Shown here: positions 1,636 through 27,330 of the stretch, piece after piece | How positions within the stretch are numbered: position 1 is the stretch's first letter | Layout: each line of letters begins with the position of its first letter | NCBI GenBank assembly: GCA_020061725.1 | Contig: JAGUXS010000068.1 | Span: 1-27,330 of the forward strand | Direction of reading: 5' to 3' | DNA length: 27,330 bases | Origin: Patescibacteria group bacterium | GTDB taxonomy: Bacteria > Patescibacteriota > Patescibacteriia > UBA2591 > PGYQ01 | Position numbers and translations under genes: made by a program | The notes under the pieces: model-generated | What the model was told of the DNA's origin: nothing | The model's database searches: none | Seen by the model: only the letters and a program-made list of their open reading frames with translations

Positions 1636-4236
1636 TTTTAAATTTTTTAATTCTGTTTGATATAATTTTAATTTTTCTTTTTCATTTTCAACAATATTAG
1701 CTGGAGCTTTATTGATAAATTCTTTGTTTAATAATTTTCTTTTTAAATTAAAAATTAATTTTTCCAATTCAATAATTTTTTTATTAATTCTCGCCTGTTC
1801 TTTTTCTTTGTCTTTTGCGTCAATTAAATAAATTTCAATATCGTCAATAATAATACGAATCACTCGATCATCTTGCGTTTTTACATCGCAAGATTTTTTA
1901 ATTTCTAATTCATTAATATTTGTTTTTAAATTTTTAATTAATTCTTTATTTTTTTCAATTAAAGCAACGTATTTTTCAGTACAAATTATTGTTTTAATTT
2001 TTTTACTTGGTTCAATTTTATTTTCCGATCGAGCGTTACGAATGGCGGAAATAATATTTTTAATTATTTCAAAGTTATCAATATTAATATTAGTGAATTT
2101 ATTTGAAACGGTTGGCCATTTTTCTATCATTAATAAATTATTTGTTTTTATCTCTTGCCAAATAATCTCTGTTACAAAAGGAATAAATGGATGCCAAAGT
2201 TTTAATAAATTTTTTAAAATATAGAATAATATTTCATTTTTCTCTTCATTTTTTTCAAATTTGCTGATTTCTAAATACCAATCCGCAAAATCATCCCAAG
2301 TAAATTTACGTAATTTTTCACCAGCTTGTGAAAAATTATATTTTTTTAAATCATCGTTAATTTTTTTAATTAAATTATTAAATTTATTTAAAATCCATTC
2401 ATCGGCCAAAGTTAAATTTTGATATTTAACATTTAACATTTGACATTTAACATTTGACAATATATATCTTGCGATATTCCAGAGTTTATTGATAAATTTT
2501 TTAAATCCTTCAATTTTTTCTTCGCTTAATCGGCTGTCATTGCCCGGAGTACTTCCAATTAACATTGATAAACGAACAGCATCGGCACCGAATTTTTCAA
2601 TCATATTAATTGGATCAATTCCATTACCTTTTGATTTGCTCATTTTTTTGCCATTTTTATCTAAAATCATTCCGTGTAAATAAACATTTTCAAAAGGAAT
2701 TTCTTGTAAGGCAAATAATGACATCATAATCATTCGCGAAACCCAAAGTGTAAGAATTTCATATCCAGTTTCCAAAATTTGCGTTGGGTGAAATTTTAAT
2801 AGATCTCCAGATTTTTTATTTTTTTTAAAATTATCTGGCCATCCTAAAGTTGAAAAAGTCCACATTCCAGACGAAAACCAAGTATCTAAAGTATCAGGAT
2901 CTTGAGTCCAATTTTTACTTTCTGGTTTTTTAACGCCAACATAAATTTCTTGTTTACGATAATAAACAGGAATTTCGTGTCCAAACCAAATTTGACGAGA
3001 AATGCACCAGTCGCGCAAATTTTCCATCCAATCCAAATATCTTTTTTTAAATCTTTCTGGAATAAATTTTATTTCTTCTTTTTCTGCTACTTCAATTGCT
3101 TTTTCTTTAAGTGATTTATTCCCTAATTTTTTTATTTTTTTATCAACGCTAATAAACCACTGTTTTGATGGTAAAGGTTCAATCGATGCGCCGCATCGAT
3201 AGCAAATTGATAAATTGTTATTAATTTCCTCTTGTTTTTCTAATAAATTTTGTTCTTTTAATTTTTTAATAATTATTTCTCGAGCTTGTGTTGTAGTTTT
3301 ATTTGAAAATTCATTAAATCCTTTATATATTTTTCCCTCTTCATTTATAACTTTTTTTATTTCTAAATTATTTTCTTCCGCCATTTTCCAATCAGCCATA
3401 GAATGAGCGGGTGTAACCCCTAATACCCCTGTTCCAAAATTCATATCAACCTCGCGATTAGCAATAATTTTTAATTTTAAAGGAATTTCGCAAAAATTTA
3501 TTTTATAAATTTTTCCAATATATTTTTTATATCTTTTATCTTTTGGATTTACTGCCACGGCTGTATCGCCTAATTTTGTTTCTGGTCGAGTGGTAGCGAT
3601 TATAAAAGGAAAATCTTTGCTATACTTAAAAAAGTATAAAATCGCTTTTTGTTCTTTGTATTCAATTTCATCATCAGCTAGAGTGGAATGGCATCGCGGA
3701 CACCAATTTACAATTCTTTCTCCTTTGTAAATTATCCCTGCTTCATACATATCAACAAACATTTGCGCGACTGCTTTTTTTCTTTGTTCGTCTAAAGTAA
3801 AAGCTTCGCGAGACCAATCCAAAGAAGCGCCCATTTTTCTGGTTTGGCGCAAAATTGTCGCTTGAGTTTGTTTTAAAAATTTCCAAATTTCTTCAAGTAA
3901 TTTTTCTTTTCCTAAATCGTGACGAGTTATTCCTCGTTCTTTAAATATTTTTTTCTCAACAGCATTTTGTGTGGCAATAGCCGCGTGATCAGTTCCTGGT
4001 AACCACAACGTTTGATATCCTTTCATTCTATGATAACGAATCATTAAATCTTCAATAGCTAACATAGCAGAGTGTCCTAAATGTAATTTAGCTGTTATGT
4101 TTGGCGGGGGTAAAATAATAGTATAAGTGGGAGCGTTTTTAGATAAATTTAAATTATCAGGATTAAAAAATCCTGATTTTTCCCATTTTTGATAAATTTT
4201 GTCTTCGTAATTTTGTGGATTATAAGTTTTGTCCAT
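1630..4236 (-). CDS. valS: Valine--tRNA ligase
   Basis: PPPNIT..LHLGH (HIGH), PGTDHA, TTRPET, DWCISRQIWFGH, DTWFSS, KMSKSKGN; C-terminal coiled coil; 868 aa. Confidence 0.97.
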   Translation of the reverse strand: MDKTYNPQNYEDKIYQKWEKSGFFNPDNLNLSKNAPTYTIILPPPNITAKLHLGHSAMLAIEDLMIRYHRMKGYQTLWLPGTDHAAIATQNAVEKKIFKERGITRHDLGKEKLLEEIWKFLKQTQATILRQTRKMGASLDWSREAFTLDEQRKKAVAQMFVDMYEAGIIYKGERIVNWCPRCHSTLADDEIEYKEQKAILYFFKYSKDFPFIIATTRPETKLGDTAVAVNPKDKRYKKYIGKIYKINFCEIPLKLKIIANREVDMNFGTGVLGVTPAHSMADWKMAEENNLEIKKVINEEGKIYKGFNEFSNKTTTQAREIIIKKLKEQNLLEKQEEINNNLSICYRCGASIEPLPSKQWFISVDKKIKKLGNKSLKEKAIEVAEKEEIKFIPERFKKRYLDWMENLRDWCISRQIWFGHEIPVYYRKQEIYVGVKKPESKNWTQDPDTLDTWFSSGMWTFSTLGWPDNFKKNKKSGDLLKFHPTQILETGYEILTLWVSRMIMMSLFALQEIPFENVYLHGMILDKNGKKMSKSKGNGIDPINMIEKFGADAVRLSMLIGSTPGNDSRLSEEKIEGFKKFINKLWNIARYILSNVKCQMLNVKYQNLTLADEWILNKFNNLIKKINDDLKKYNFSQAGEKLRKFTWDDFADWYLEISKFEKNEEKNEILFYILKNLLKLWHPFIPFVTEIIWQEIKTNNLLMIEKWPTVSNKFTNINIDNFEIIKNIISAIRNARSENKIEPSKKIKTIICTEKYVALIEKNKELIKNLKTNINELEIKKSCDVKTQDDRVIRIIIDDIEIYLIDAKDKEKEQARINKKIIELEKLIFNLKRKLLNKEFINKAPANIVENEKEKLKLYQTELKNLKL
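2417..2458. repeat. In-frame heptamer array ATTT(A/G)AC x5 plus one degenerate unit in valS
   Basis: Units read directly at 2424-2458; encodes LSNVKCQMLNVKYQN in the linker after KLWNIARYI. Confidence 0.9.
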
Positions 4237-4262
4237 AAAAAAGTTTAAATTAAATCATTTAA

Positions 4263-4291
4263 AGATTAACAAAAAATAATTAAGAAATCAA
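4263..4291 (-). promoter_or_regulatory. Putative valS promoter
   Basis: Minus strand TTGATT, 17 nt spacer ending TGT, TAATCT; leaves a leader of about 20 nt, too short for a T-box. Confidence 0.4.
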
Positions 4292-4322
4292 ATTTTAGAC
4301 GAATAAATGCTATTTAATAAAA

Positions 4323-4350
4323 TTGCTATTTTATAATTTTTTTGTATAAT
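4323..4350 (+). promoter_or_regulatory. Putative gpmI operon promoter
   Basis: TTGCTA, 16 nt spacer, TATAAT, 34 nt upstream of the ATG at 4385. Confidence 0.55.
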
Positions 4351-4384
4351 TTTAAAATGAATTAAAATTATGTGAATTAAAATT

Positions 4385-5953
4385 ATGAATTATAAATTTA
4401 AAAAAACGCCTATTGTTTTAATTATCCTCGATGGTTGGGGAATTGCTCCAGCATCAAATGGAAACGCGATTACTTTGGCAAAAACACCAACAATGGATTT
4501 TTTATATAAAAAATATCCATACACAACTTTAAAAGCGCATGGAAAATATGTTGGTTTGTCTAATGAACAAGATGGTAATTCTGAAGCTGGGCATATGAAT
4601 TTAGGAGCTGGTAGAATAGTTAAACAAGACGCTGTTTATATTTCAGAAAGCATTGCGGATGGAACATTTTTTAAAAACACAGCTATTTTAGAAGCAATAA
4701 AACACACTAAAAAATATAACACAAATGTTCATTTATTAAGTTTGCTTTCGGGATCGCAAAGTCCTCATACTAATTTAAATCATCTTTACGCTTTTTTAGA
4801 ATTAATTAAACGACAAGAAATAAGTAGTAATAAAATTTTTTTGCATTTTTTTACTGATGGTCGCGATTCTTCACAATATGGGGCTTTGAAATATTTAAAA
4901 AAAGTTGTTTCTAATTTTCAAGGTGAAGAAAAAATCGCCACAATTTCTGGACGATTTTTTGCAATGGATAGAAAGAAAAAATGGGAGAGAATTGAAAAGG
5001 TTTATAATGCTATGGTTTTAGGAGAAGGGGAGAGAGCGGAGAGTTCAGAGCAAGTTATTTTGAGGGCTTATAATAAAAAATTAACCGATGAATATATTTT
5101 GCCGACAGTAATTACAAAAAATGGAAAACCGATTAGCGTAATTAAAGACAATGACGCGATTATTTTTTCTAATTTAAGATCGGATCGCGCTCGAGAATTA
5201 ACTAAAGCGTTTATTCAAAAAGATTTTAATAAAATGAATCCCGGATCATTCAAAAGAAAAAAAGTTCTTCAAAATATTCGTTTTGTGGCAATGACTGATT
5301 TTGGACCAGACCTGCCTCATATTTTTACCGCGTTCCCTTCTCGCGATATAAAAATGAGTTTGCCTGCTGTTTTAAAAAATTTAAAACAAGTTTATATCGC
5401 TGAAACAGAAAAATACGCTCATATGACTTATTTTATAAATGGCGGGTATGCTGATCCGATTGATGGAGAAGAAAGGATAAAAATTTCTTCATTGGATATT
5501 CCTTATTACGACAAAGAGCCAAAAATGAGCGCGCCAGAAATTACAAAAACAGTTTTGAATAAATTACAAGAAAATAATTATGATTTTATTGCGATTAATT
5601 TTGCTAATCCGGATATTATTGGTCATACTGGAAATTTAAAAGCGGCAATTCAAGCCGTTGAATGTGTTGATCAATGCGTGGGAGTGATTGTAAAAAAAGT
5701 TCAAGAAAAAAATGGTATTGCCATAATAACAGCCGATCATGGGAATGTTGAAGAAATGATCAATTTAAAAACCGGAGAAATAGACACAAAACATTCAAAA
5801 AATCCCGTACCGTTTATTTTAGTTGACAATCAAAAAAGAAAAATAAAATTAAAAGATGAGGGAAATTTAGCTGATGTCGCTCCAACAATTTTAGAATTGT
5901 TTCAAATAAAAAAACCAAAAGAAATGAATGGGAGAAGTCTTCTTATTAACTAG
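4385..5953 (+). CDS. gpmI: 2,3-bisphosphoglycerate-independent phosphoglycerate mutase, paralog 1
   Basis: ILDGWG, GNSEAGH (catalytic Ser), DGRD, GRFFAMDR, RSDRAREL, ETEKYAH, NFANPDIIGHTG, TADHGN. Confidence 0.93.
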   Translation: MNYKFKKTPIVLIILDGWGIAPASNGNAITLAKTPTMDFLYKKYPYTTLKAHGKYVGLSNEQDGNSEAGHMNLGAGRIVKQDAVYISESIADGTFFKNTAILEAIKHTKKYNTNVHLLSLLSGSQSPHTNLNHLYAFLELIKRQEISSNKIFLHFFTDGRDSSQYGALKYLKKVVSNFQGEEKIATISGRFFAMDRKKKWERIEKVYNAMVLGEGERAESSEQVILRAYNKKLTDEYILPTVITKNGKPISVIKDNDAIIFSNLRSDRARELTKAFIQKDFNKMNPGSFKRKKVLQNIRFVAMTDFGPDLPHIFTAFPSRDIKMSLPAVLKNLKQVYIAETEKYAHMTYFINGGYADPIDGEERIKISSLDIPYYDKEPKMSAPEITKTVLNKLQENNYDFIAINFANPDIIGHTGNLKAAIQAVECVDQCVGVIVKKVQEKNGIAIITADHGNVEEMINLKTGEIDTKHSKNPVPFILVDNQKRKIKLKDEGNLADVAPTILELFQIKKPKEMNGRSLLIN

Positions 5954-5974
5954 TAACTAATAATTTAGCTTGTA

Positions 5975-6057
5975 GAAAATTAAAATTAAGAACACAAAAT
6001 ATAGAAAATTAAAAATTAGAAATTATTTTTTTAACTTTTAATTTTAAATTTTATTTC
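5975..6057. repeat. Intergenic inverted heptamer-like arrays (A-rich arm then T-rich arm)
   Basis: AGAAAATTAAAAATTAGAAA followed by TTTTAACTTTTAATTTTAAATT, an imperfect inverted repeat between the gpmI copies. Confidence 0.55.
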
Positions 6058-6070
6058 ATAATATGAAAAT

Positions 6071-7645
6071 ATGAAGTCTCCTATTGCTCTTATTATTCTC
6101 GATGGTTGGGGAATTGCTCCGGCGTCGAGGGGAAATGGAATAAGTTTAGCCAAAACTCCAAACTTTAATAAATATATTACTACTTATTTTAGCGCTGTTT
6201 TGCAAGCTTCTGGAGAGGCTGTTGGATTACCTTATGGCGAAGTGGGAAATTCAGAAGTTGGACATTTAAATTTAGGAGCTGGAAAAATTATTTTTCAAAA
6301 TTTGCCTCGAATTAATAAATCTATTTTAAATGGAAGTTTTTTTAAAAATAAAATTTTTTTAGAAGCGTTTAGTCATATTAAAAAAAATAATTCCTCTTTA
6401 CATCTTTTAGGATTGGTTTCAAATGGCGGAGCACATAGTTTTAATGAACATCTTTTTGCTCTTCTAGAATTAGCAAAAAAAGAAAAATTAGATAGGGTTT
6501 TTATTCACGCATTTTTAGACGGTAGAGACACTTCTTATAATAGCGGATTGGATTTTATAAAAGAATTGGAAGAAAAAATAAATCAAATTGGCATTGGAAA
6601 AATCGCTAGCCTTTCCGGAAGATTTTTTGCGATGGATCGAGATAATCATTGGGACAGAATTAAAAAAGTTTATTTAGCGCTTACAGAAGGACAATCTGAA
6701 GAAAAATTTAATAATTCCATTGAAGCCATTCAAAATTCTTATGATCAAAATATTTTTGATGAAGAATTTTTACCAACAGTTTTATTAGATGAAAATAAAA
6801 AACCAATCGCTACTATACAAGATAGCGACGCGATTATTTTTTTTAATTTTAGATCAGATCGCGCTCGAGAATTAACTCAATCTTTTGTTTTGCCAAATTT
6901 TGAAAAATTTAAAAGACCGACATATTTAAAAAATTTATATTTTACGACGATGACCGAGTATGAAGAAAATTTTCCTGTAAAAATAGCTTTTCCGTCAGAA
7001 AAAATCGAAAATTCTTTATCAAAAATTTTAAGCGATTTAGGATTAAAACAACTTCATATCGCCGAGACAGAAAAATACGCTCACGTGACTTATTTTTTTA
7101 ATGGCGGCAAAGAAGAGCCTTTTTGGGGAGAGGATAATGTTGTCGTTCTTTCTCCTCAAGTCTCTTCGTATGCCGAAAAACCTGAAATGAGCGCGTTAGA
7201 AGTGACTAAAAAATTAATTCAAGAAATTTCCAGAGACGAATACGATTTTATTGTTTGTAATTTTGCTAACACTGATATGGTCGGACATACCGGAAATTTA
7301 AAAGCGGTTATTCAAGCTGTTGAATGCGTTGATCAATGTTTAAAAAAAATTGTTGATCAAATTTTATTAAAAAATGGAATTATTTTAATAACCGCCGACC
7401 ATGGCAATGCCGAAGAAGTAATAAATTTATATACTGGAGAAATTGACAAAGAACATTCTGTTAATCCAGTTCCTTTTATTTTGATTGGCAAACAATGGGA
7501 GGGTGAAGCTAAAAAATTGAGTAGAATTAATCCAGATTTAAGTGGACTTATTTCAACTGGCGTTTTAGCTGATATTGCTCCGACAATTTTGAAAATTATG
7601 AATATCCCAGAACCAGAAGAAATGACAGGAAATAGTTTGATTTGA
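6071..7645 (+). CDS. gpmI: 2,3-bisphosphoglycerate-independent phosphoglycerate mutase, paralog 2
   Basis: ILDGWG, GNSEVGH, VSNGGAHS, DGRD, GRFFAMDRDNHW, ETEKYAHVTYFFNGG, NFANTDMVGHTG, TADHGNAE. Confidence 0.95.
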   Translation: MKSPIALIILDGWGIAPASRGNGISLAKTPNFNKYITTYFSAVLQASGEAVGLPYGEVGNSEVGHLNLGAGKIIFQNLPRINKSILNGSFFKNKIFLEAFSHIKKNNSSLHLLGLVSNGGAHSFNEHLFALLELAKKEKLDRVFIHAFLDGRDTSYNSGLDFIKELEEKINQIGIGKIASLSGRFFAMDRDNHWDRIKKVYLALTEGQSEEKFNNSIEAIQNSYDQNIFDEEFLPTVLLDENKKPIATIQDSDAIIFFNFRSDRARELTQSFVLPNFEKFKRPTYLKNLYFTTMTEYEENFPVKIAFPSEKIENSLSKILSDLGLKQLHIAETEKYAHVTYFFNGGKEEPFWGEDNVVVLSPQVSSYAEKPEMSALEVTKKLIQEISRDEYDFIVCNFANTDMVGHTGNLKAVIQAVECVDQCLKKIVDQILLKNGIILITADHGNAEEVINLYTGEIDKEHSVNPVPFILIGKQWEGEAKKLSRINPDLSGLISTGVLADIAPTILKIMNIPEPEEMTGNSLI

Positions 7646-7737
7646 ATTTGATGGGGATTATGAATAAAAAAATAATTTAATTAAATTTAATCAAAATCGC
7701 GCCAAATTTTATTTTATGTTCATTTTACCTTTTATTT

Positions 7738-8778
7738 ATGCAGCTTTTGAGATTTCAAAATTCGGGGACTGTTCCTTTAAATGAAGAACAAAAAAATGCG
7801 GTGACTTATAAAAATGGTCCTTTGCTTATTATTGCCGGAGCTGGTACAGGAAAAACCACGGTTATTACCACAAGAATAGCTTGGTTAATTTTATTTAATC
7901 AAATTAAACCAGAAGAAATTTTAGCTCTAACTTTTACCGATAAAGCGGCAGAAGAAATGGAAGAAAGAGTGGATCGACTTTTACCTTATGGTTATGTTGA
8001 TTTATGGATTTCTACTTTTCATTCTTTTGCCGAGAGAATTTTAAAACAACACGCCATTGATATTGGCTTGCCGGATAATTTTAAATTATTAAATCAAACA
8101 GAACAAAATTTTTTAATCAGGCGAAATTTTGATCGATTTAATTTAGATTATTATCGTCCATTAGGAAATCCAACAAAATTTATTCAAGCGATGATTAAAC
8201 ATTTTTCACGAGTCAAAGATGAAGAAATTTGGCCAGAAGATTATTTGGAATACGCCGAGGGATTAAAATTAGATAGAGATATTGAAATGTCAAATGTCAA
8301 ATGTCAAATGTCAAATGCGAATGAAATAAAACGAATTAATGAAATAGCTAACGCTTATCATGTTTATCAACAACTTTTATTAAAAAATAGCGCTTTGGAT
8401 TTTGGAGATTTGATAAATTATACTTTAAAATTATTTCGAACAAGGCCGCAAATTTTAGAAAAATACAGAAAACAATTTAAGTATATTTTAGTTGACGAGT
8501 TTCAAGACACAAATTGGGCTCAATATGAATTAATAAAACTTTTAGGCGCGCCAAAAAATAATATCACTGTTTCCTTTGATGATGATCAATCAATCTATAA
8601 GTTCCGCGGGGCTTCGGTGAGCAATGTGATGCAATTTAAAAAAGATTATTCAAAAGCAAAACAAATTGTTTTAATAAAAAATTATCGCTCTAAACAAAAT
8701 ATTTTAGATTTGGCTTATAATTTTATTCAAAAAAATAATCCTAATCGTTTAGAATGGCAATTAAAAAATAATCAGTAG
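7738..8778 (+). CDS. uvrD: UvrD/PcrA-family helicase, N-terminal half only (346 aa)
   Basis: LNEEQ (Q motif), AGAGTGKT, LTFTDKAA, STFHSF, VDEFQDTN, DDDQSIYKFRGA, NYRS. The ORF ends before the 2A/2B domains and no continuation is seen in other frames. Confidence 0.85.
   Translation: MQLLRFQNSGTVPLNEEQKNAVTYKNGPLLIIAGAGTGKTTVITTRIAWLILFNQIKPEEILALTFTDKAAEEMEERVDRLLPYGYVDLWISTFHSFAERILKQHAIDIGLPDNFKLLNQTEQNFLIRRNFDRFNLDYYRPLGNPTKFIQAMIKHFSRVKDEEIWPEDYLEYAEGLKLDRDIEMSNVKCQMSNANEIKRINEIANAYHVYQQLLLKNSALDFGDLINYTLKLFRTRPQILEKYRKQFKYILVDEFQDTNWAQYELIKLLGAPKNNITVSFDDDQSIYKFRGASVSNVMQFKKDYSKAKQIVLIKNYRSKQNILDLAYNFIQKNNPNRLEWQLKNNQ
8285..8319. repeat. In-frame heptamer array AAATGTC x4 plus AAATGCG in uvrD
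   Basis: Read directly; encodes EMSNVKCQMSNA in the 1B-domain region. Confidence 0.92.
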
Positions 8779-8814
8779 CCCCCAATGAATAATCTGTAAT
8801 TAGTTGATGATTTT

Positions 8815-9855: not shown

Positions 9856-9909
9856 CAAAAAAACAAAAAAATATTATTTTAATTTGTTATTTTAATTTTT
9901 AATTTTTTT

Positions 9910-10680
9910 ATGTTTTTTATCGCTAATTGGAAAATGAATCTTACTAAAAAAGAAACTTTAGAATTAATAAAAGAAATTATAAAAGAAATAAAAAAAATAA
10001 CCCTTTGCGGCAAACAAAAATTGGACATAATTTTATGCCCATCTTTTACCGCGCTTTCAGATGTCCAGAAATTTTTATCTAAGAAGCTACAAATTACAAA
10101 CTGCAAGCTATCCCTTGGAGCGCAAGATGTTTTTTGGGAAGAAAGAGGGGGGTTTACTGGCGAGATTTCAACTTCTATGCTTAAAGAGATTGGATGCCAA
10201 TATGTGATTATTGGACATTCTGAACGTCGACAATATTTAAAAGAAACGGATAAAATGATAAATAAAAAAATAAAAAGTTGTTTAAAATTTAACTTAAAAC
10301 CAATTCTCTGTGTTGGAGAAAAATCATTAAAGACCAATAAGCCGTCAATTATTGAACAAATAAAAAAAGATTTAAATGGAATTTCTCAAAAAGAAATCAA
10401 AAAAGTGATTATTGCATATGAACCAATTTGGGCAATTGGGGTGGGAAAAATTTGTTCTTTAGAAAGAGCGGTTGAAAAAATAGAAATTATAAGAAAAACA
10501 ATTTTTGATTTTTTTAATTTAACACAAAATCAAAAAATTAAAATTTTATACGGCGGAAGTGTTGATAGCGCGAATATTAAATCAATGACCGATCAATCAG
10601 AAATTGATGGAGTTTTAATTGGCGGAGCGAGTTTAAAAATAGACGAAGTCGTAGAGATGATAAAAAAAATTAGTTTATAA
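9910..10680 (+). CDS. tpiA: Triosephosphate isomerase
   Basis: ANWKMN, GAQD, IIGHSERR, CVGE, AYEPIWAIG, YGGSV, LIGGASL. Confidence 0.97.
   Translation: MFFIANWKMNLTKKETLELIKEIIKEIKKITLCGKQKLDIILCPSFTALSDVQKFLSKKLQITNCKLSLGAQDVFWEERGGFTGEISTSMLKEIGCQYVIIGHSERRQYLKETDKMINKKIKSCLKFNLKPILCVGEKSLKTNKPSIIEQIKKDLNGISQKEIKKVIIAYEPIWAIGVGKICSLERAVEKIEIIRKTIFDFFNLTQNQKIKILYGGSVDSANIKSMTDQSEIDGVLIGGASLKIDEVVEMIKKISL
10085..10112. repeat. Degenerate in-frame heptamer array in tpiA (AGCTACA AATTACA AACTGCA AGCTATC)
   Basis: 7-nt periodicity visible; encodes KLQITNCKLS just before LGAQD. Confidence 0.65.
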
Positions 10681-11601: not shown

Positions 11602-11781
11602 AATATAAAAAATAAAAAAATGTGAAATTTAAATGTTGTTATTGCGCGAGGAAATTTATTTAAAATTATAAACAAAGTTCCATTATTTGTTAAAATTAAT
11701 ACGATAAATACACTTTTTTATATAACAAGTGAACGAGGAAAGCGAATATAATAATTTTGCATTTTACATTTTAAATTTTTT
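11593..11781. repeat. A-rich heptamer array (11593-11637) and complementary T-rich array (11753-11781) between the TPR gene and tRNA-Thr
   Basis: AAAATGT AAAATAT... overlaps the TPR stop codon; ATTTTGC ATTTTAC ATTTTAA ends just before the tRNA. Confidence 0.7.
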
Positions 11782-11782
11782 T

Positions 11783-11854: not shown

Positions 11855-12031
11855 AATTTAAACATCCTAAATGTTTAAGTTAAATTTAATTTTAATTAGG
11901 ATTAAACTTTGGCAAAATTTTGAACAATATTGTTAAATTTTTTATTTTAGCCATTTTTTTATTTAAAAGAATAAATGGTTTTTTAGGAAAAATTAATAAA
12001 ATTTATTAAAGTAACTTACTTTATTTTTTCC

Positions 12032-12065
12032 TAATTCATAATTCATAATTTTAATTCTTAATTTT
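12032..12065. repeat. Heptamer array TAATTCA/TAATTCT/TAATTTT just upstream of tRNA-Thr(TGT)
   Basis: Read directly: TAATTCATAATTCATAATTTTAATTCTTAATTTT. Confidence 0.65.
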
Positions 12066-12070
12066 ATTCT

Positions 12071-13691: not shown

Positions 13692-13820
13692 ACAATTTAA
13701 GTAATTTATAATAAGCAATAAGTACATTCTATAATGAGATTGCTTGTTATTCGTTATTTTTATTATTTTGTTAGATATTTTATTTTTATTATTTATTTTA
13801 TAAATAATAAAAATTTTTTT

Positions 13821-14372
13821 ATGAAAAAAACAACAAGTATTTTACAACCAAGAAGGGCAGGGGATATTGATAAAAAATTTATTAAAGGACAAAAAGAAAC
13901 AATTCTGTGTCCTAAGTGCAAAACTGTTTATTATGATAAATGCTGGCATAAAAATTTAAAACTTCTTGAAAAAAATATAAAAAACGCGAAAAAATTTTTG
14001 TGTCCAGCTTGTAAATGGACAAAAACAAATTTAGCTGAAGGGGTGATTGTTTTAAATTTAAAAAATAATCTTAGAGAAAAAGAAATTTTGAATTTGATAA
14101 AAAACGTGGAAGCTAGAGCTAAATTACGCGATCCAGAAGATAGAATAATAAAAATAAATAAATCCCGCGTTTTTATTTATTCACCTTCACAGCAAATTGT
14201 AGAGCATTCTGGGAAGATGCGCGACAAAGAAAAAAACAAAATAACCATTTTAACAACTGAAAATCAATTAGCCGTAAGCATTGCCAAACAAATTAAAAGG
14301 GCGTTTAAAGGCGAACTAAAAATAAAGTGGTCTCACAATGAAGATGTGGTTAGAATAGAATGGACTGAATAA
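13821..14372 (+). CDS. Zn-ribbon protein resembling the BCAM0308/NMD3-like family (start probably 13821, not 13734)
   Basis: CPKC...W and CPAC...EGVIVL, then TTENQLAVSIAKQI..AFKG.L.I.WS..ED.VR..W. ATG 13821 has the TTTTATG context shared by other genes; the upstream extension is low-complexity. Family from recall. Confidence 0.6.
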   Translation: MKKTTSILQPRRAGDIDKKFIKGQKETILCPKCKTVYYDKCWHKNLKLLEKNIKNAKKFLCPACKWTKTNLAEGVIVLNLKNNLREKEILNLIKNVEARAKLRDPEDRIIKINKSRVFIYSPSQQIVEHSGKMRDKEKNKITILTTENQLAVSIAKQIKRAFKGELKIKWSHNEDVVRIEWTE

Positions 14373-14473
14373 AATGAAAAATTAAAAAATCAAAATATAA
14401 AATGACAATGCAAAAAATAAAAATTAAAAAATAAAATAAAATAAATATAATTTTAATTTGTTTTTACGCTTTA

Positions 14474-16662: not shown

Positions 16663-18186
16663 TTATTGATCGTTTTTAATTATTTTTTGATTTTTCCAAA
16701 TCCATAAAATAATCAAACCATAAATTAAAAACACAATTAGCCAATGAATTTCTATTTTTATAGAAGCAAAAGGAATTTCGGAAAAAAGTTTAATGGTTTT
16801 AATTTCATAAGCCAAAAATATCCAAGCAATAAATCCAATAATTTTAGCCAACCAAAGCCAAAAAAAACTAATTATTGTCGTAATAAAACCCCAAAACATA
16901 GACAATGGGACGACTGGTAAAATAAAAACATTTACGATTGGCGCGATCAAAGATAATTGTCCAAAATTATAAACAATAATTGGAAAAGTCATAATTTGAG
17001 CCGAAACAGTCATTAAAAGAGATTCTCTAAATTGTAAAATATTTGAGATTTTATAAAATCCTTTTTTAAAAAGAATAGGGGATAGATAAATAATTCCCAA
17101 AGTTGCCAAAAAAGACAATTGAAAACCGATGTCATAACGTAAAATTTTAGGATTAAATAAAAGCATTAAACAAGCGGTAAAAACAACGGCATTGGTTATA
17201 TTTTTTAAGCGTCCAATTTTTTTAGATAATAAAACCAAAATTCCCATAATTGCCGCTCGAACAACCGAAGCTTCAGCCCCGGTTAAAATTACAAAAAAAA
17301 TAATTCCAGTAATTGTTAAATAAAAACTTGATGATTTAGAAAAATATAAAATGTAAAATAAATTCATTAAAAGAATACCAATAATTGTTATATTATAACC
17401 AGAAAGCGCGATAAGATGAGTGGTGCCAGTAATATTAAAAGAATTTATTAATTGAAAGGGGAAATCTTTACGATCTCCAATTAAAAGTCCGGATAAAAAA
17501 AATGACTCTGGCGAAGATAAAATAGTTAAGATTTTTTCTTGAAATTTATCTCTAAGTAAAAATAAATTTTTTTGAATAAAATTTCCTTTATTTTGAGCTA
17601 AAAGTTTTATTTTAGGATAATAAGCGATTGAATGAATATGATATCTATCTAAATAATTTTTATAAGAAAAATCTTTAGATTCAAGAGGAGTTTTTAATTT
17701 TGTTTTGATTTCTAATTCATCGCCATATTGATAATCTGTTTTAGATGACAAGTAAAGCAAGATTTTTTCTTTAATTTTTTTTTGAGAATTTGAAAATGAA
17801 ATTTCATAAACTTCAAAAATAATTTTTTTTGAAGTTTTTTTATTTCCCAAATCGCCGATTATAATTCCTTTTAAAATTATTTCTTCTTTTGTTTCATTAT
17901 AAGATTGTAAAAAATATTGTTTTGAATAATTTTTTTGAAGATAAAAAATTCCAAAAATTAGAGAGAAAAAACAAAAACCAATAATTGTCATTTTAACATT
18001 AAAAATTTTATTTTTATCCCAGCTAAAAATTTTTTCATTTTCTCGCGGCCATAAAAAAATAATCCAAAAAATTCCTAAAACAAAAACCCCTTCTAAAATA
18101 TTAGAAGGAATTTTTATCCACGAACTTATAAAAATACCTAAAATAAAAGCTAAACAAATAAAAAGAAAAATTTTTGATTTTCTCAT
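16663..18186 (-). CDS. comEC: ComEC/Rec2 competence protein (OB-like plus competence domain, no metallo-beta-lactamase domain)
   Basis: HLIALSGYNITI, GAEASVVRAAIM, DIGFQLSFLAT, NVFILP motifs; multiple transmembrane segments. Confidence 0.88.
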   Translation of the reverse strand: MRKSKIFLFICLAFILGIFISSWIKIPSNILEGVFVLGIFWIIFLWPRENEKIFSWDKNKIFNVKMTIIGFCFFSLIFGIFYLQKNYSKQYFLQSYNETKEEIILKGIIIGDLGNKKTSKKIIFEVYEISFSNSQKKIKEKILLYLSSKTDYQYGDELEIKTKLKTPLESKDFSYKNYLDRYHIHSIAYYPKIKLLAQNKGNFIQKNLFLLRDKFQEKILTILSSPESFFLSGLLIGDRKDFPFQLINSFNITGTTHLIALSGYNITIIGILLMNLFYILYFSKSSSFYLTITGIIFFVILTGAEASVVRAAIMGILVLLSKKIGRLKNITNAVVFTACLMLLFNPKILRYDIGFQLSFLATLGIIYLSPILFKKGFYKISNILQFRESLLMTVSAQIMTFPIIVYNFGQLSLIAPIVNVFILPVVPLSMFWGFITTIISFFWLWLAKIIGFIAWIFLAYEIKTIKLFSEIPFASIKIEIHWLIVFLIYGLIILWIWKNQKIIKNDQ

Positions 18187-19325
18187 ATTTTATTAAAAAT
18201 TAAATTCCAAACTTCATAAAGAATTCCCAAGAAAAAAATAGCGATAATAAAATAGGCAAGAAAACGAGGAATGTTTATGGAGTATGCTGGTGTGTCGTCA
18301 CATTTCTTTTTTGCTTGCCAATATATTAAAATAATCAATATTCCATCTAAACCGCCAATAAGCAAACCGGTAATGCCAATAATTTTAATAAAATTAGTCC
18401 AACCACTTAAAAAAAGAAATAAAGGAACAAAACAAACTAATATTGTTGAAATAGTTTTATTTAATTTATAATCGTAATGATAAATTTGTTTCAAGGCGAG
18501 ACCAAGACTTAAAAAAGAAGTACTGACCGTAAAAAATCCAAAAATTGATCCTAAAAATAATATTTCTTTTCCTAAAAAATTTCCTAAATCAATAATTGCA
18601 TTTTCTGAAATTATTTTACCAACTACGCCAACGCCGACTAAACTAAATAAAATATAGATAATCAAAGGAATTAAAGTTCCTAAAATAATCGCTTTTTTTA
18701 ATAAAAATTTTTTTTCTTTCAAAACTATTTCCATAATCGGAATTGCCGAAACTCCACCTAAGGCAAAAAGAATTACTCCAAAAGGAAGAAAAAAATAATT
18801 TAAATCAATTGATATTAAATTTTCAAATTTTATTTGTGGAAATCCAAAAACAAAAATTATTGAAATAATTATTAGCAAGAAAATTATTATTAATAATTCT
18901 ATTTTTGGAATAGCTTTTATTCCAAAAAAAATTACTATAGTTGTGCAAATAGAAAAAATTAAACTGTAATCAAAAGGAGATAAAGAGAAAAAATTTCCTA
19001 AAATTGAATACAAAAAATTTCCAGCTATAATAAGATAGGCGAGTAGGGCGCCGTAAAAACCAAAATAAACCGCGAAAATTGTCGCTAATTCTCCCCATTT
19101 TCCAAGATAGATTTTTGCGTAACCGATTAGTTGATGATTTTTTTTTGTTCTCAAAACAACTTCGCCATAACAAAGATTTAAAACAAGAATAATTAATCCT
19201 AATCCAATTAAATATAAAAATCCCGGCATAAAACCGATTTTAGCGATTACATAAGGTATGCCAAAAATCCCTACCCCAATAGTTGTCCCTATTAAAACAG
19301 AAGTAGCGATAAAAAAAGATTTCAT
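18183..19325 (-). CDS. Amino-acid permease (aromatic amino acid/AAAP-like)
   Basis: IGTTIGVGIFGIPY, YGALLAYL, PFGVILFAL; about 11 hydrophobic segments; ATGA overlap with comEC. Confidence 0.75.
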   Translation of the reverse strand: MKSFFIATSVLIGTTIGVGIFGIPYVIAKIGFMPGFLYLIGLGLIILVLNLCYGEVVLRTKKNHQLIGYAKIYLGKWGELATIFAVYFGFYGALLAYLIIAGNFLYSILGNFFSLSPFDYSLIFSICTTIVIFFGIKAIPKIELLIIIFLLIIISIIFVFGFPQIKFENLISIDLNYFFLPFGVILFALGGVSAIPIMEIVLKEKKFLLKKAIILGTLIPLIIYILFSLVGVGVVGKIISENAIIDLGNFLGKEILFLGSIFGFFTVSTSFLSLGLALKQIYHYDYKLNKTISTILVCFVPLFLFLSGWTNFIKIIGITGLLIGGLDGILIILIYWQAKKKCDDTPAYSINIPRFLAYFIIAIFFLGILYEVWNLIFNKI

Positions 19326-19448
19326 AAAAAAATATAAAATATAGTATATTTAAAATATAAAAAATAAAATTTAGTAATTTTTAATTAAATAAATAGTTTT
19401 ATAAACCAAATAAATAATTTTTATATTTTCTTAAAATTAAAAGGAATA

Positions 19449-20243: not shown

Positions 20244-20247
20244 AAAA

Positions 20248-22021: not shown

Positions 22022-22029
22022 AAAAATAA

Positions 22030-22059
22030 TATAGGGAACAAAAATTTTTGTTTCCTATA
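22030..22059. other. 30-nt near-perfect palindrome between rmuC and the ABC ATPase
   Basis: TATAGGGAACAAAAA/TTTTTGTTTCCTATA, one G-T mismatch; ends 9 nt from the ATPase start codon. Confidence 0.65.
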
Positions 22060-22085
22060 ATTTCGCGAATAAATATAAATAAATT

Positions 22086-23150: not shown

Positions 23151-23223
23151 AAGATAATAATTAAAAAATAAAATATTTTAAAATTTATCAATGTGAAAAT
23201 ATATTTACAGATCTAAACATCAA

Positions 23224-24375
23224 TTATCTTAAAATCACTTTATACGCTACGCTTGGGGTGGTAATTATAAGATTTAATCCATATTCTCGACGTAAACGTT
23301 CTTGAATAATTTCTAAATGTAACATTCCTAAAAATCCGCAACGGAAACCAAACCCTAAGGCTTGAGAAATTTCCGGTTCATAAAATAAACTTGCGTCAGT
23401 TAATTTTAATTTATCCAACGCTTCTCGAAATTTTGAATAATCACTTCCATCTTTGCAAAATAACCCGGCAAAAACCATTGGTTTTATCTCTTTGTATCCA
23501 GGCAAAGCTTTTATTTTATAATCGCGAGCTATATTTTGTATTATTATTGTATCTCCAACTTTACAGCTTTTTATATCCTTTAAACCAGTTGCAATATAAC
23601 CAATTTCACCAGTTTCTAAGCTGTTTTTTGGAAAAAAATTAGGTTTAAAAATTCCTACTTCTAAAATTTCAGCTTGTTTTTTTGTTTCCATAAATTCAAT
23701 TTTGTCGCCCTTTTTTATTTTTCCGTCAATAATACGAACGTAAACAATCACTCCTTTATATTCATCATAAACCGAATCAAAAATTAAAGCGCGTAAAGGT
23801 TTATTTGAATTATTAGCCGGAGGGGGGATATATTTAATTACTGAACACAAAAGTTGTTCAACTCCTTCGCCTGTTTTTGCGGAAATAAAAAGTGGTTTAC
23901 AGCAAATATTTGACGATGATTCGTAATTTAATAACTGTTCTATTTCTTTTACTGTTTTTTCTAATTGAGCGTTAGGTAAATCAATTTTATTTATTACTGG
24001 AATAATAAATAAATTTTGTTCCAAGGCTAGGTGTAAATTAGTCAAGGTTTGCGCTTGAATTCCTTGTGTAGCGTCTACTAATAAAATAACCCCTTCTACA
24101 GCGGCCAAAGATCGCGAGACTTCATAAGTAAAATCAACATGTCCGGGAGTATCAATTAAATTTAACTTGTAGTTTATGGTTGATAATTGGTAGTCAAGTT
24201 GAACTGGTTGAAGTTTAATTGTAATACCTTTTTCTCTTTCCAAATCCATTTGATCTAAAAATTGCGAACGCATTTTTAGTTTATCTATTGTTTTTGTTAA
24301 TTCTAAAAAACGATCGGCAAGAGTCGATTTTCCATGATCAATATGCGCAATAATACAAAAATTTCGAATATTCAC
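23224..24375 (-). CDS. lepA: Elongation factor 4 (LepA), N-terminal 383 aa only
   Basis: IRNFCIIAHIDHGKSTLADR, EREKGITIK, LIDTPGH, NKID, GFRCGFLGMLH; GTG start. Stops after TTPSVAYKVILR, whereas LepA is normally about 600 aa. Confidence 0.9.
   Translation of the reverse strand: MNIRNFCIIAHIDHGKSTLADRFLELTKTIDKLKMRSQFLDQMDLEREKGITIKLQPVQLDYQLSTINYKLNLIDTPGHVDFTYEVSRSLAAVEGVILLVDATQGIQAQTLTNLHLALEQNLFIIPVINKIDLPNAQLEKTVKEIEQLLNYESSSNICCKPLFISAKTGEGVEQLLCSVIKYIPPPANNSNKPLRALIFDSVYDEYKGVIVYVRIIDGKIKKGDKIEFMETKKQAEILEVGIFKPNFFPKNSLETGEIGYIATGLKDIKSCKVGDTIIIQNIARDYKIKALPGYKEIKPMVFAGLFCKDGSDYSKFREALDKLKLTDASLFYEPEISQALGFGFRCGFLGMLHLEIIQERLRREYGLNLIITTPSVAYKVILR
24167..24194. repeat. Degenerate in-frame heptamer array in lepA (coding ACTACCA ATTATCA ACCATAA ACTACAA)
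   Basis: 7-nt periodicity; encodes YQLSTINYK in the hairpin before LNLIDTPG. Confidence 0.65.
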
Positions 24376-24429
24376 AGAAAGAAAATTAAAAATTAAGAAT
24401 CACTTTAAATTACAAAATGCAGTTTTTAT

Positions 24430-24530
24430 ATTGTTGCGAGACTAGTGATGTTATATTAGAAAACATTTGACAATTTTATAGTTAAGTTCTTCAGTAATAT
24501 AGACTGCCCTACAAATATGCTCGCAATGAC
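24430..24530. repeat. Degenerate palindromic element with TTGCGAG...CTCGCAATGAC ends
   Basis: ATTGTTGCGAG (24430-24440) pairs with CTCGCAATGAC (24520-24530), 10 bp with wobbles. It resembles REP/RPE-like GTCATTGCGAG elements (from recall). Confidence 0.45.
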
Positions 24531-24553
24531 AAATAGGGGATTTTACATTAAAA

Positions 24554-25462: not shown

Positions 25463-25482
25463 AAAATAAACAAAAATTTATT

Positions 25483-26016
25483 TTATTTTAAAAAAATTTT
25501 AAACAGATTTTTATTTTTAAGCACATAATCTTCTAACTCTTCTAACGCTTTTATAAACGGCATGCCGTTTATAACTTTTAATTTTAGTTCTTCAATTTTT
25601 TGTTTGCGACTTATAAAATCTAATAACCTTTTTAAAAAACTTGGATCAAGAAAAGCTGGATTTTTAGAAAATGCTCTAGCATTTTTTATTATTGCTATTA
25701 GATTTTCTGGATCTGCTACTTTTGGATATAGATCAAATGGAAGGTGATACATTGACGTAAAGCTTTCATCAATTTCTTTAACTTTTTCCCATATTCCTCT
25801 AATTAATAAACCTATTAATATCTTAGGTCTCTTGAATATATCAACAGGTTGAAGATTTAATTTCTTAATTAGATTTAAATCTATAATTTTTAATGGTCTA
25901 AAATGGAAATTATTATTTAATAATCTTGAAATAGACATATCATCATATTCTCTTGTTATTTCTGTTATTAACATAATGAAACTACTAAAACATATTTTAT
26001 ATTTTCCGTCTTCCAT
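25483..26016 (-). CDS. Hypothetical protein (177 aa)
   Basis: Long ORF co-oriented with its neighbours; no recognisable motif. Confidence 0.6.
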   Translation of the reverse strand: MEDGKYKICFSSFIMLITEITREYDDMSISRLLNNNFHFRPLKIIDLNLIKKLNLQPVDIFKRPKILIGLLIRGIWEKVKEIDESFTSMYHLPFDLYPKVADPENLIAIIKNARAFSKNPAFLDPSFLKRLLDFISRKQKIEELKLKVINGMPFIKALEELEDYVLKNKNLFKIFLK

Positions 26017-26094
26017 TGTTTGTTGAGTTGAATATAAAAAATTAATTTGATCTAATAATCCATCTTTTTTTAATTTATCTTTTAACTTTCCTGT

Positions 26095-26313
26095 TTATTT
26101 TAAAAGAAATATTCCTTCTAAAATTTCTTCAAAAATTTTACACTGCGCAATTGGATCATTGTCTGTAAAATCTTCTTGGAAAAGACCTAAAAGATTATTT
26201 TTTAATTCTTGTGGTATATTATAATGACTAAACTCTTCTTTAAAAATTTTTTTTGTTATGACAGATTTTTTCTGGTTCTTCTTTACTAAAGGCAAGCCAC
26301 TTATAATACTCAT
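26095..26313 (-). CDS. Small hypothetical protein (72 aa), possibly the 3' half of a frameshifted gene
   Basis: ORF with TTTTTATG start context; overlaps ORF 26240-26404 in the +1 frame. Confidence 0.4.
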   Translation of the reverse strand: MSIISGLPLVKKNQKKSVITKKIFKEEFSHYNIPQELKNNLLGLFQEDFTDNDPIAQCKIFEEILEGIFLLK

Positions 26314-26404
26314 AAAAATTTCTGTTTTTTCTTGCTTTATTTATTTTTTCTTCCATTTTTGTCATAATTTTGTCATTTGTTTTTTCTTTTATTTCATTGC
26401 TCAT
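26240..26404 (-). CDS. Small hypothetical ORF (54 aa), not in the supplied track
   Basis: MSNEIKEKTNDKIMTKMEEKINKARKNRNFYEYYKWLAFSKEEPEKICHNKKNF*; stops just after an A8 tract (T8 at 26247-26254). Confidence 0.45.
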   Translation of the reverse strand: MSNEIKEKTNDKIMTKMEEKINKARKNRNFYEYYKWLAFSKEEPEKICHNKKNF

Positions 26405-26498
26405 ATTTTAAACTTGGATATCCCTCCCTGTCCAAGTAATACATAAATAAAATAAATATTTTATAATTCGATTTTCGCTAATTAAAAAAATATTAAAT

Positions 26499-26518
26499 TT
26501 TAGCTAATCTTAGCTAAA
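26499..26518. promoter_or_regulatory. Operator-like palindrome TTTAGCTAA-TC-TTAGCTAAA
   Basis: Perfect 9-bp inverted repeat made of two TTAGCTAA units; a related TTTTAGCTGAAA lies at 26563-26574. Confidence 0.4.
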
Positions 26519-26600
26519 GAAATTCACTATAACAAATACCTCCATAAAATGATTCTGTGTTATTTTAGCTGAAAAGTATAATTTTTCAGTGAGAGTTGGG

Positions 26601-27330
26601 TTATAAATATTTTATCATATATTCATCTCTTAGTCTATATCCTAATTTTCTATAATATTCGCGGACACCGATGCCGGAGATTACGGCTATTTTTTTAATT
26701 TTAAAATTTTTTGTTTGTTTAAATTTTTTAAAAGAAAATTTTAACGAACGAACAATTTTTTCCGCTTCAATAATTAATTTTTTTCCAAAACCAAAATGTT
26801 GAATCGCTTTTTTGTCTTTTTCTCCAATGGCAACCATCTGTCCATAAGTATGAACTTCGCGAATAATCGCGCAATCTTTTAAAATTGTTAATTGTTGATT
26901 GTTAATTGTTGATCGAAATGATGGTATTCTTAATCGCAAAAAAGCATATAATTTTTTTCGTTTTAAATCTTCAAAACTTAAAAAATATTCTATACCTCCA
27001 GACGCTTCATATTTTTCAACAAATATTTTTAAATTTTGCATTTTACATTTTACATTTTGTATCTTTTTTACCTGTCTGCATCTAATGCATTGGCATTTTA
27101 AATTTTGTTTTTTCATTTCTTGTTGAACTATTTCTCGTAAATTTGAAACCTTGCTCCCAGCCTCAATGTTAGTTGATGGAATATCGCGAATCACTCGAAT
27201 AATTCTTACATATCGTGGAATAATTGATTTGATTTTAATCAAAAGATTTGTTAATTGTTTAGTGGAATATGGTTTATATTTTCCTTGTTTCCAAAGTTGA
27301 TAAAGTTTTGAATTTTTTGTCACAACGCAA
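26601..27330 (-). CDS. elp3: Elp3-like radical SAM/GNAT tRNA U34 acetyltransferase, C-terminal part (5' end outside the window)
   Basis: YVRIIRVIRDIP, CQCIRCR, FLRLR, IREVHTYG, QHFGFGKKL..EAE, VISGIGVREYYRKLGY; the frame is open to the window end (CVVTKNS). Confidence 0.9.
   Translation of the reverse strand, partial: CVVTKNSKLYQLWKQGKYKPYSTKQLTNLLIKIKSIIPRYVRIIRVIRDIPSTNIEAGSKVSNLREIVQQEMKKQNLKCQCIRCRQVKKIQNVKCKMQNLKIFVEKYEASGGIEYFLSFEDLKRKKLYAFLRLRIPSFRSTINNQQLTILKDCAIIREVHTYGQMVAIGEKDKKAIQHFGFGKKLIIEAEKIVRSLKFSFKKFKQTKNFKIKKIAVISGIGVREYYRKLGYRLRDEYMIKYL
26884..26911. repeat. In-frame heptamer array ATTGTT(A/G) x4 in elp3
   Basis: Read directly; encodes STINNQQLTI. Confidence 0.88.
27033..27060. 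repeat. In-frame heptamer array ATTTT(GC/AC/AC/GT) in elp3
   Basis: Read directly; encodes QNVKCKMQN. Confidence 0.85.

Follow-up and report, generated by a model that had tools for sequence, protein, structure and literature searches.

The DNA stretch analyzed in this work, hereafter the window, comprises 27,330 nt and represents the entire contig C15 of a patescibacterial genome (G000: 619,658 nt, 99 contigs, 27.7% GC), whose relatives have genomes of 0.5–1.3 Mb. It contains genes for five housekeeping proteins: valS (1630–4236, minus strand), the N-terminal half of UvrD (7738–8778, plus strand; an open reading frame (ORF) of 346 aa), tpiA (9910–10680, plus strand), the N-terminal part of LepA (23224–24375, minus strand; an ORF of 383 aa without the C-terminal domains), and the C-terminal part of an Elp3-like radical-SAM protein (26601–27329, minus strand). 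These genes had been named in an earlier annotation made from the letters of the window (the sequence-only reading), and all of them were confirmed by Pfam. The same reading had described arrays of tandemly repeated 7-nt units (heptamer arrays) written in frame into loops of the five proteins, and had attributed them to a dedicated mechanism that adds or rewrites units at many loci. We found that the arrays belong to a dispersed, non-random family of period 7, and the overall pattern resembles a familiar class of microsatellites that change by slippage, found here in an uncommon context, more than it does a novel system for writing DNA.

Arrays were called with Tandem Repeats Finder (TRF), and five local dinucleotide shuffles of the genome served as the null. 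Two TRF counts of period-7 arrays are used: 75, which is the best-scoring non-overlapping set, and 140, which includes all rows (138 once overlaps were merged). ORF calls were crude and covered 81% of the genome, and start calls were likewise crude. G000 was compared with five congeners (G001 to G005), the genus set thus consisting of six genomes. G003 is a congener with about 97% DNA identity, whose sequence was compared nearly whole (502 kb), and the deeper congeners show 77–80% protein identity. A phylum sample of 401 genomes (0.4–2.1 Mb) was also available. In three groundwater metagenome runs, 5–6% of the sampled sequence words of the window were present; a run search with an 8-kb stretch returned no DNA run.

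In-Frame Arrays in Housekeeping Genes of the Window

The valS array is located at 2418–2459 (minus strand) and consists of five to six AAATGTY units with 89–95% matches, which read TCAAATG/TTAAATG on the sense strand and encode the peptide LSNVKCQMLNVKYQ. It occupies the loop that connects the first helix of the anticodon-binding domain to the second, after the NKLWN helix, where it replaces an equally long loop of Thermus thermophilus ValRS. Other units were found in this loop in two congeners: five copies of TACAAGC in G004, and ACGCATA together with AAGCTAC in G002. The array of uvrD (8285–8317, plus strand) is a perfect repeat, (AAATGTC)x4.7, coding for MSNVKCQMSN. It lies within an 11-aa insertion relative to G001 and G005, both without the array, in a segment that could not be aligned to PcrA. 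In G003 the uvrD array has equal length and three substitutions, and in G002 the loop contains an unrelated AAAATTC array and is longer by 47 aa.

Two arrays were identified in elp3. Array 1 (27027–27058, minus strand) contains 4.6 copies of AAATGTA/AAATGCA, reads CAAAATG TAAAATG TAAAATG CAAAATT on the sense strand and encodes QNVKCKMQN; its unit (sense YAAAATG, a rotation of AAATGTA/AAATGCA) is one base away from the uvrD unit. A peptide of the form QNxKxKxQN occurs at this position in 6/6 genomes of the genus and, because a related peptide is present in all six, the array was considered to be old. Array 2 (26883–26913, minus strand) consists of four AACAATY units (sense YAACAAT) and encodes STINNQQLT. 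It is identical in G003, and in G002 it holds a 39-nt GC-rich palindrome inside.

In the lepA loop (24167–24194, minus strand) and the tpiA loop (10085–10112, plus strand; CTACAAA TTACAAA CTGCAAG), a weak lag-7 periodicity was observed, with 14 and 13 matches out of 21, respectively, and no TRF call. Since 1.3–2.5% of all genomic 28-nt windows score as high as these stretches, the two arrays are not significant on their own. In the congeners, the lepA loop carries (TACAAGC)x4 in G002 and CAGTTGY units in G004, and the tpiA loop of G002 carries TACAAGC units split by an 81-nt in-frame palindromic element. Given these clear arrays at the same loops, the lepA and tpiA loops of G000 are probably decayed arrays. 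Among the six arrays cited in the sequence-only reading, those of valS and uvrD and the two of elp3 were therefore clear, and those of lepA and tpiA were weak alone and rescued by the congeners. Its placement of the in-frame arrays in variable loops or linkers of housekeeping proteins held, as seen in the valS loop and the uvrD insertion segment. Across the five congeners, the loops of valS, uvrD, lepA, tpiA, and elp3 contain different units, or none.

All the ORFs that host arrays are intact, and coding arrays are free of stop codons and situated in length-variable segments. A C variant of the unit occurs exactly where a T would produce an in-frame TAA, in the valS codons TGT-CAA and TAT-CAA and in AAT-CAA of elp3 array 2, as would be expected of a frame-blind DNA repeat patched by selection. 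An in-frame array of octamers, (AAAATACA)x5.6 with the peptide KYKNTKIQKYKNTKM, was also found at 15841–15885 (plus strand), in the linker that separates the CoA-ligase domain from the ATP-grasp domain in an ADP-forming acyl-CoA synthetase-like gene; it has the same length in G003. Period 7 is therefore dominant, not exclusive.

Genome-Wide Excess of Period-7 Arrays and Repertoire of Units

In the 620 kb of G000, 75 arrays of period 7 were identified by TRF versus 1–4 in the shuffles, 109 of period 14 versus about 30, and 42 of period 21 versus about 8. Periods 6 and 8 were represented by 7 and 15 arrays. When only exact runs of at least three copies were counted, period 7 yielded 31, and periods 5, 6, 8, and 9 yielded 7, 9, 2, and 3, respectively. 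According to the sequence-only reading, its proposal of a dispersed family would have to be given up if period 7 were no commoner than in shuffles or than other periods, or if the peptides were conserved in distant orthologues. Period 7 exceeded the shuffles and periods 5, 6, and 8, and the peptides were not conserved in distant orthologues; the family is real.

More than 40 different canonical units occur in G000, and among its non-coding units AATTCAT is the most frequent. The units have a motif in common, T-N-(A/C)-A-T-T-(T/A), with an information content of 5.4 bits versus 4.35 ± 0.16 in GC-matched random heptamers. The claim that the same unit arises in unrelated genes was too strong in view of this diversity, the shared motif notwithstanding. 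Unrelated proteins do share peptides, as had been noticed in the window: those of the NVKCQMS type are present in ValS, UvrD, and at least three further proteins. Comparison of the flanks of arrays with the same unit revealed no conserved sequence, terminal repeats or target duplications. The number of units and the unconserved flanks indicated that the arrays are not copies of one element. In the phylum sample, (AAATGTC)3 was found in 8/401 genomes, with seven other families represented, and the reversed control in 0/401.

Distribution and Orientation of the Arrays

According to the crude ORF calls, the 75 period-7 arrays divide into 40 intergenic ones, 26 coding ones, and 9 that extend across a gene boundary; the number of coding arrays rises to about 39–43 when all 140 TRF rows (138 merged) are counted. 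Per kb, coding arrays are depleted approximately eightfold relative to non-coding ones. The coding arrays, which the sequence-only reading took as the core of the phenomenon, are consequently its smaller part, most arrays being non-coding leader arrays. Those situated up to 40 nt upstream of starts are mainly T-rich on the sense strand (38:12), and coding arrays are mainly A-rich on it (32:7); both orientations follow the local AT skew. The statement that the A-rich strand is always the coding strand applies in the window, and genome-wide it applies to only 32 of 39 coding arrays.

Many leader arrays end 0–13 nt before starts that are recognizably genuine, namely those of rpsL (MPTINQLI), rplV, gatB, a HIT protein gene, mreB, and dnaA. 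A GGAG/GAGG/AGGA motif at positions −20 to −4 was present in 5.3% of the predicted starts, with a background of 4.8%. Within the accuracy of these crude start calls, the array leaders seem to be without Shine-Dalgarno sequences, and initiation would seem to be largely Shine-Dalgarno-independent.

Coding arrays measure 24–39 nt (with two exceptions), and non-coding arrays reach up to 129 nt. The possibility of quantized coding lengths (a seed plus three units) was considered and discarded: the length histograms of coding and non-coding arrays both peak at 24–35 nt, and the upper tail alone differs.

Changes of the Arrays Between Close Genomes

Comparison of G000 with G003 involved 33 non-coding arrays with an orthologous site, 26 of them strictly intergenic and 7 overlapping a gene boundary. 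Indel differences were observed in 23/26 intergenic arrays; across all 33 non-coding arrays, eight differences amounted to exact multiples of the unit length (−7, −14, and −35 nt). Over 349 kb of aligned sequence, seven exact tandem indels of 7 nt were counted versus 0–2 for each of the lengths 4, 5, 6, 8, and 9 nt, and all the 7-nt events were in or beside non-coding arrays. Coding arrays behaved differently. Among the 28 with an orthologous site, 26 had the same length in both genomes (11 identical and 15 with substitutions only), and differences of 7 or 14 nt were found in 0/28. Unit-number differences, the signature of slippage, were thus found in non-coding and not in coding arrays. The substitution rate of coding arrays was 5.0%, compared with a background of 3.2% (p = 0.007), a rise that fits relaxed constraint rather than hypermutation.

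In same-length arrays, 18 of 51 differences belonged to changes that recurred identically, at one unit phase, in at least two units. The null for such concerted changes was 5.9 ± 3.0, and a value of 18 was reached in 0/2000 permutations. The clearest case is elp3 array 1, in which two TAAAATG units of G000 correspond to three CGAAATG units of G003 at identical length. These concerted changes at fixed length indicated that units are copied onto their neighbors without a change in length. Simple slippage could not achieve this where the gene is essential, since every step of 7 nt shifts the frame; we infer that short templated copying, in which the strand slips and then comes back into register, would explain it. 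Slippage had been judged insufficient in the sequence-only reading, prematurely in view of the differences of −7, −14, and −35 nt, the peak of 7-nt indels and the concerted change of units.

Non-Coding Arrays and Other Features of the Window

Several leader arrays are located in the window. A T-rich one at 9877–9907 (plus strand) ends 2 nt before the tpiA start codon, (ATTTTAC)x3.7 at 11754–11779 (plus strand) ends 3 nt before tRNA-Thr(GGT), and (TTCATAA)x5.3 at 12028–12063 (plus strand) ends 7 nt before tRNA-Thr(TGT). On the minus strand, an array at 19329–19370, T-rich on its sense strand, ends 3 nt before a permease gene (18183–19325), and a short array at 24382–24400 (sense TAATTTT) lies 6 nt upstream of the lepA start. 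Two A-rich, imperfect arrays follow genes on the plus strand. One, at 5976–6025, comes after the stop codon of the first of two genes for cofactor-independent phosphoglycerate mutase (iPGM) and is followed by T-rich repeats at 6029–6056, before the second iPGM gene; the fold here is no stabler than in shuffles. The other, of period 7/14 (14371–14436), begins at the stop codon of the ORF 13734–14372. The idea that an A-rich array and a complementary T-rich array form the stem of a spacer hairpin was rejected, as six window spacers gave z values of −1.8 to +1.2 versus dinucleotide shuffles.

The 5' part of a 16S rRNA gene occupies positions 1–648 of the window (minus strand), where model positions 1–531 are spread over 648 nt. 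The gene carries an insertion at about 441–583 that is GC-clamped and folds with z = −7.2 versus shuffles, the only significant fold among the window stretches tested. Its AT-rich loop (464–558, minus strand) is built of heptamers, AAATGTA units followed by T-rich units.

Other features of the window deserve mention. Between the two tRNA-Thr genes, at 11871–12012, there is a dispersed AT-rich element of about 110–170 nt with an imperfect hairpin (TTGGCAAAAT...ATTTTAGCCA). About 12 copies of this element were detected in G000 and more than 25 in G003, with no match in Rfam. One copy is present in G003 at window position 19417 and absent there in G000, which indicated that the element was gained or lost between close genomes. 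The two iPGM genes are full-length and arranged in tandem (4385–5953 and 6071–7645), an odd arrangement for a 0.6-Mb genome, and their order is kept in the congeners. In 6/6 genomes of the genus, the UvrD and LepA ORFs end at identical positions, which marks them as conserved half-genes and not assembly artefacts. A segment of about 940 nt (25504–26443) is missing from the otherwise collinear G003 contig (C77); it includes a 177-aa ORF (25483–26016) without a Pfam match.

A Palindromic Element Within Arrays of a Congener

G002 contains a GC-rich palindromic element of about 81 nt (CTCCGAC...GTCGGGA), of which 10 copies were detected. Wherever the flanks could be read, the element was inside a heptamer array. 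Copies are located at L043:2838–2919 (tpiA), at two sites in L063 (elp3) and in L182–L190. Three of the insertions, one of them in TpiA and the others in Elp3, keep the reading frame and are translated. No copy was found in G000 by match search. Occupied sites of G002 and empty sites of G000 could thus be compared at tpiA and elp3, and the number of units was equal in both. Since no unit is added at the occupied sites, there is no 7-bp target duplication, and on this basis the arrays were rejected as transposon footprints (7-bp target-site duplications). The simplest reading is either that palindrome and arrays both build up at the same insertion-tolerant sites or that the palindrome prefers arrays.

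Phylogenetic Extent and Candidate Genes

The density of period-7 arrays per 100 kb was 12.1 in G000, 12.6 in G003, and 13.0 in G005. Genomes of other families showed 3.0 (G007), 1.9 (G022), 1.7 (G010), 0 (G027), 5 (G009), and 15 (G021, 41% GC, on 20 kb only). The density of the genus was 4–6 times that of sister families. Period 7 was the leading short period wherever arrays occur, and in G003 and G005 too it was favored over its neighbors.

MutS domain V was matched in 0/31 genomes of the order and in 11/14 control genomes. Loss of MutS was rejected as the cause of the lineage-specific density, since the heptamer-poor G007 and G022 gave no MutS match either; loss of mismatch repair would be a permissive background at most, not the discriminating cause. 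PF05635 (23S rRNA IVS four-helix-bundle), put forward in the sequence-only reading as a family that might co-occur with the arrays, is present in one copy in G000, in 13 copies in G002 and in 7 in the heptamer-poor G007, and was not found in G003 and G005 despite their equal density. As its copy number does not track array density, IVS proteins were discarded as the responsible or linked gene. The sole PF05635 gene of G000 (C1:1989–2291, minus strand) has AATTCAG arrays immediately upstream and ATTTTAC/ATTTTGC arrays downstream; these are not complementary and form no bracketing stem. No responsible enzyme was implicated.

Origin of the Arrays

The arrays are probably heptanucleotide microsatellites of the type described by Mrazek and coworkers, akin to the short tandemly repeated repetitive (STRR) sequences of cyanobacteria, which are made and remodeled by misalignment and filtered by selection. 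They would be born and remodeled at the DNA level, blind to the reading frame, when the nascent strand misaligns with its template by at least one 7-nt unit during replication or repair. By a simple slip, whole units would be gained or lost; by a slip with return to register, the variant of a neighboring unit would be copied and the length would stay unchanged. Selection would then decide which arrays survive. Between genes, arrays could lengthen and change their number of units, and they would settle for the most part in U-rich leaders directly adjoining start codons or the 5' ends of tRNAs. Inside genes, an array would persist only if it contains no stop codon, preserves the net reading frame, does not exceed about 40 nt and is placed in a surface loop or linker that tolerates changes in length. 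Its sense strand would also have to be A-rich, which gives rise to hydrophilic peptides rich in N, K, Q, and S. As a consequence of selection for permissive loops, the same loops would carry different heptamer units in different species. To account for the recurrence of units in unrelated genes, no dedicated system is required: the units share a compositional motif, and on the sense strand they have to be stop-free and yield hydrophilic peptides. The misalignment mechanism, the reason for the 7-nt unit and the selective filter are thus what we infer from the observed arrays.

Several points weigh against this interpretation. The preference for 7 nt is left without an explanation, the polymerase footprint being only a published hypothesis. 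Perfect arrays in essential genes are hard to reach through single 7-nt steps, each of them frameshifting, and multi-unit or compensated events have to be assumed. Loss of mismatch repair cannot account for the lineage-specific density, for the reason given above. The likeness among units is above chance and (AAATGTC)3 recurs across the phylum, and both observations hint at a sequence preference not predicted by plain slippage.

A rival explanation is a dedicated heptamer-writing system, in which a lineage-specific enzyme (e.g., a reverse transcriptase, a nuclease or a template-switching polymerase) adds or overwrites units at many loci. The density is lineage-specific although no genome of the order searched has a MutS match, units share a motif, (AAATGTC)3 recurs when its reversed control does not, units change in concert without a change in length, and congeners have other units written into the same loops. 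We nevertheless regard such a system as very unlikely. No candidate gene emerged, PF05635 being the one family tested, and what distinguishes close genomes is the ordinary gain or loss of units. The location of the arrays and their orientation track local base composition and stop-codon avoidance, and an octamer array occupies the same kind of site. A dedicated writer is not needed to explain the arrays, and the proposal of the sequence-only reading was not supported on this point. It is also doubtful that a lineage-specific process working in a 7-nt register overwrites permissive sites with units of a preferred form (T-N-M-A-T-T-W) while keeping loop length. The clade's replication or repair machinery might be a candidate for it, or an unrecognized factor promoting short templated copying. 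If such rewriting exists, it would represent a built-in generator of local peptide novelty and a handle on the bacterial preference for heptamer repeats.

Arrays of about 30–35 nt might instead be miniature blocks, spread between loci by ectopic gene conversion or a tiny mobile element. Five loci have AAATGTY arrays of near-equal length (31–36 nt), three such arrays are perfect in G000 and all three imperfect in G003 at identical length, and coding arrays are capped at 24–39 nt. This asymmetry between the two genomes is, however, partly ascertainment bias, the arrays having been selected in G000, and the opposite pattern was found too, elp3 array 1 and C76:3143 being more perfect in G003. In addition, units and lengths are continuous, with non-coding arrays well above the proposed block size, and no conserved flanks, terminal repeats or target duplications were observed. 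The one true mobile element seen, the 81-nt palindrome of G002, enters pre-existing arrays without target duplication and was not found in G000. Copying of blocks is accordingly judged highly improbable.

The leader arrays could also be selected elements of leaders or promoters, their copy number tuning expression and the coding arrays being spill-over. They might, for example, offer S1 or cold-shock proteins an unstructured U-rich binding site in the absence of enriched Shine-Dalgarno motifs. The tight spacing of arrays before true starts (rpsL, rplV, gatB, HIT, mreB, and dnaA) and before two tRNAs, the T-rich orientation and a frequency of Shine-Dalgarno-like motifs (5%) equal to the background agree with this idea, as does the parallel with the TAACTGA repeats of Beggiatoaceae, where CspB binds one protein per heptamer (PMC4679880). 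Against it, units and copy numbers differ freely between genomes that are 97% identical, arrays also precede tRNAs, which are untranslated, the orientation is that of the general upstream AT skew, and the spacers fold no better than shuffles. Moreover, selection on leaders explains where arrays persist and not why the period is 7; as the origin of the arrays we consider it unlikely. Finally, in a genome of such low GC content and with 99 contigs, the arrays might be suspected of arising by chance from AT-rich sequence of low complexity, or of being artefacts of the assembly. The excess over local dinucleotide shuffles and the presence of the same arrays in an independently assembled congener render this explanation negligible.

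The preference of long bacterial microsatellites for 7-nt units has awaited an explanation since 2007, and that of the cyanobacterial STRRs since 1990. The genus provides an unusually dense natural data set, with about one array per 3–8 kb depending on whether periods 14 and 21 are counted, several sequenced congeners and three selective regimes (leaders, trailers, and coding loops). Its arrays illustrate that essential enzymes (ValRS, UvrD, EF4, TIM, Elp3, and others) can take up DNA repeats that are blind to the reading frame, and the remodeling of loops by copying of units at fixed length would offer minimal genomes a simple route to rapid local turnover of protein loops. The arrays also create spurious peptide similarity between unrelated proteins and are likely break points in metagenome assemblies. 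Judging by the crude start calls, translation in these organisms may depend little on Shine-Dalgarno sequences; should that be so, the leader arrays are also relevant to how it is initiated.

Comparison With Known Repeat Systems

A literature search found no paper linking heptamer repeats with Patescibacteria or the candidate phyla radiation, and the arrays were compared with repeat systems of other bacteria. Rickettsia palindromic elements (RPEs) are in-frame selfish insertions, namely mobile palindromic elements of 100–150 nt with conserved sequence. As with RPEs, extra peptide segments are tolerated here in surface loops of housekeeping proteins, but the G000 arrays have no palindrome, conserved sequence or conserved flanks. 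The genus does have an RPE-like selfish element, namely the palindrome that lies inside heptamer arrays of G002. The contingency loci of Haemophilus and Neisseria are phase-variable simple sequence repeats (SSRs) (PMC2651432). They resemble the present arrays in being short tandem repeats within or beside genes and prone to gain and loss of units. Contingency loci are surface-antigen genes, whereas the arrays described here reside in essential housekeeping genes and show no frame switching (none of the 28 coding arrays compared differed by 7 or 14 nt).

TAACTGA direct repeats are known from marine Beggiatoaceae and from some Cyanobacteria and Bacteroidetes (PMC4679880), and those of Beggiatoaceae lie directly upstream of start codons. 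The position of heptamer arrays a few nt upstream of start codons and a patchy phylogenetic distribution are common to both cases. Those repeats have, however, one fixed unit in two to tens of copies, compared with dozens of units here, and the arrays of G000 are also found before tRNAs and inside genes. The unit TAACTGA is absent from the unit lists of G000. STRR sequences are known from heterocystous cyanobacteria, and G-rich repeats of the types GGGAATC and GGGGA(C/T)T from Xanthomonas and Nostoc (PMC4692102). Like these, the arrays of G000 are dispersed, comprise several unit types per genome, are mostly intergenic and vary in length and sequence between close relatives. They differ in their AT-rich T-N-M-A-T-T-W units without G-quadruplex potential, in belonging to another phylum and in their prominent in-frame copies, and the units characteristic of STRRs (CCCCAGT and GGGGAYT types) were not found among the G000 units. 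The resemblance to cyanobacterial STRR heptamers pointed out in the sequence-only reading is thus one of kind only, the units being unrelated.

As summarized in PMC4679880 and PMC4692102, the study of Mrazek et al. (2007; PNAS 104:8472) ranked heptanucleotide repeats first in abundance among long SSRs (LSSRs) with units of 5–11 nt in most prokaryotic genomes, with units in coding regions mostly divisible by three, and proposed polymerase slippage, 7 nt being the DNA segment held by the polymerase. The present arrays agree with these LSSRs in the over-representation of tandem 7-nt units, their mostly non-coding location and, for the non-coding arrays, the variation of unit number between relatives. 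They are distinguished by a density (about 12 period-7 arrays per 100 kb) that is very high for a 0.6-Mb genome, by about 40 arrays translated in frame in essential genes, and by coding arrays that are length-locked yet evolve in concert. The case described here has the defining features of the general class of heptanucleotide LSSRs and is a member of no sequence-defined family.

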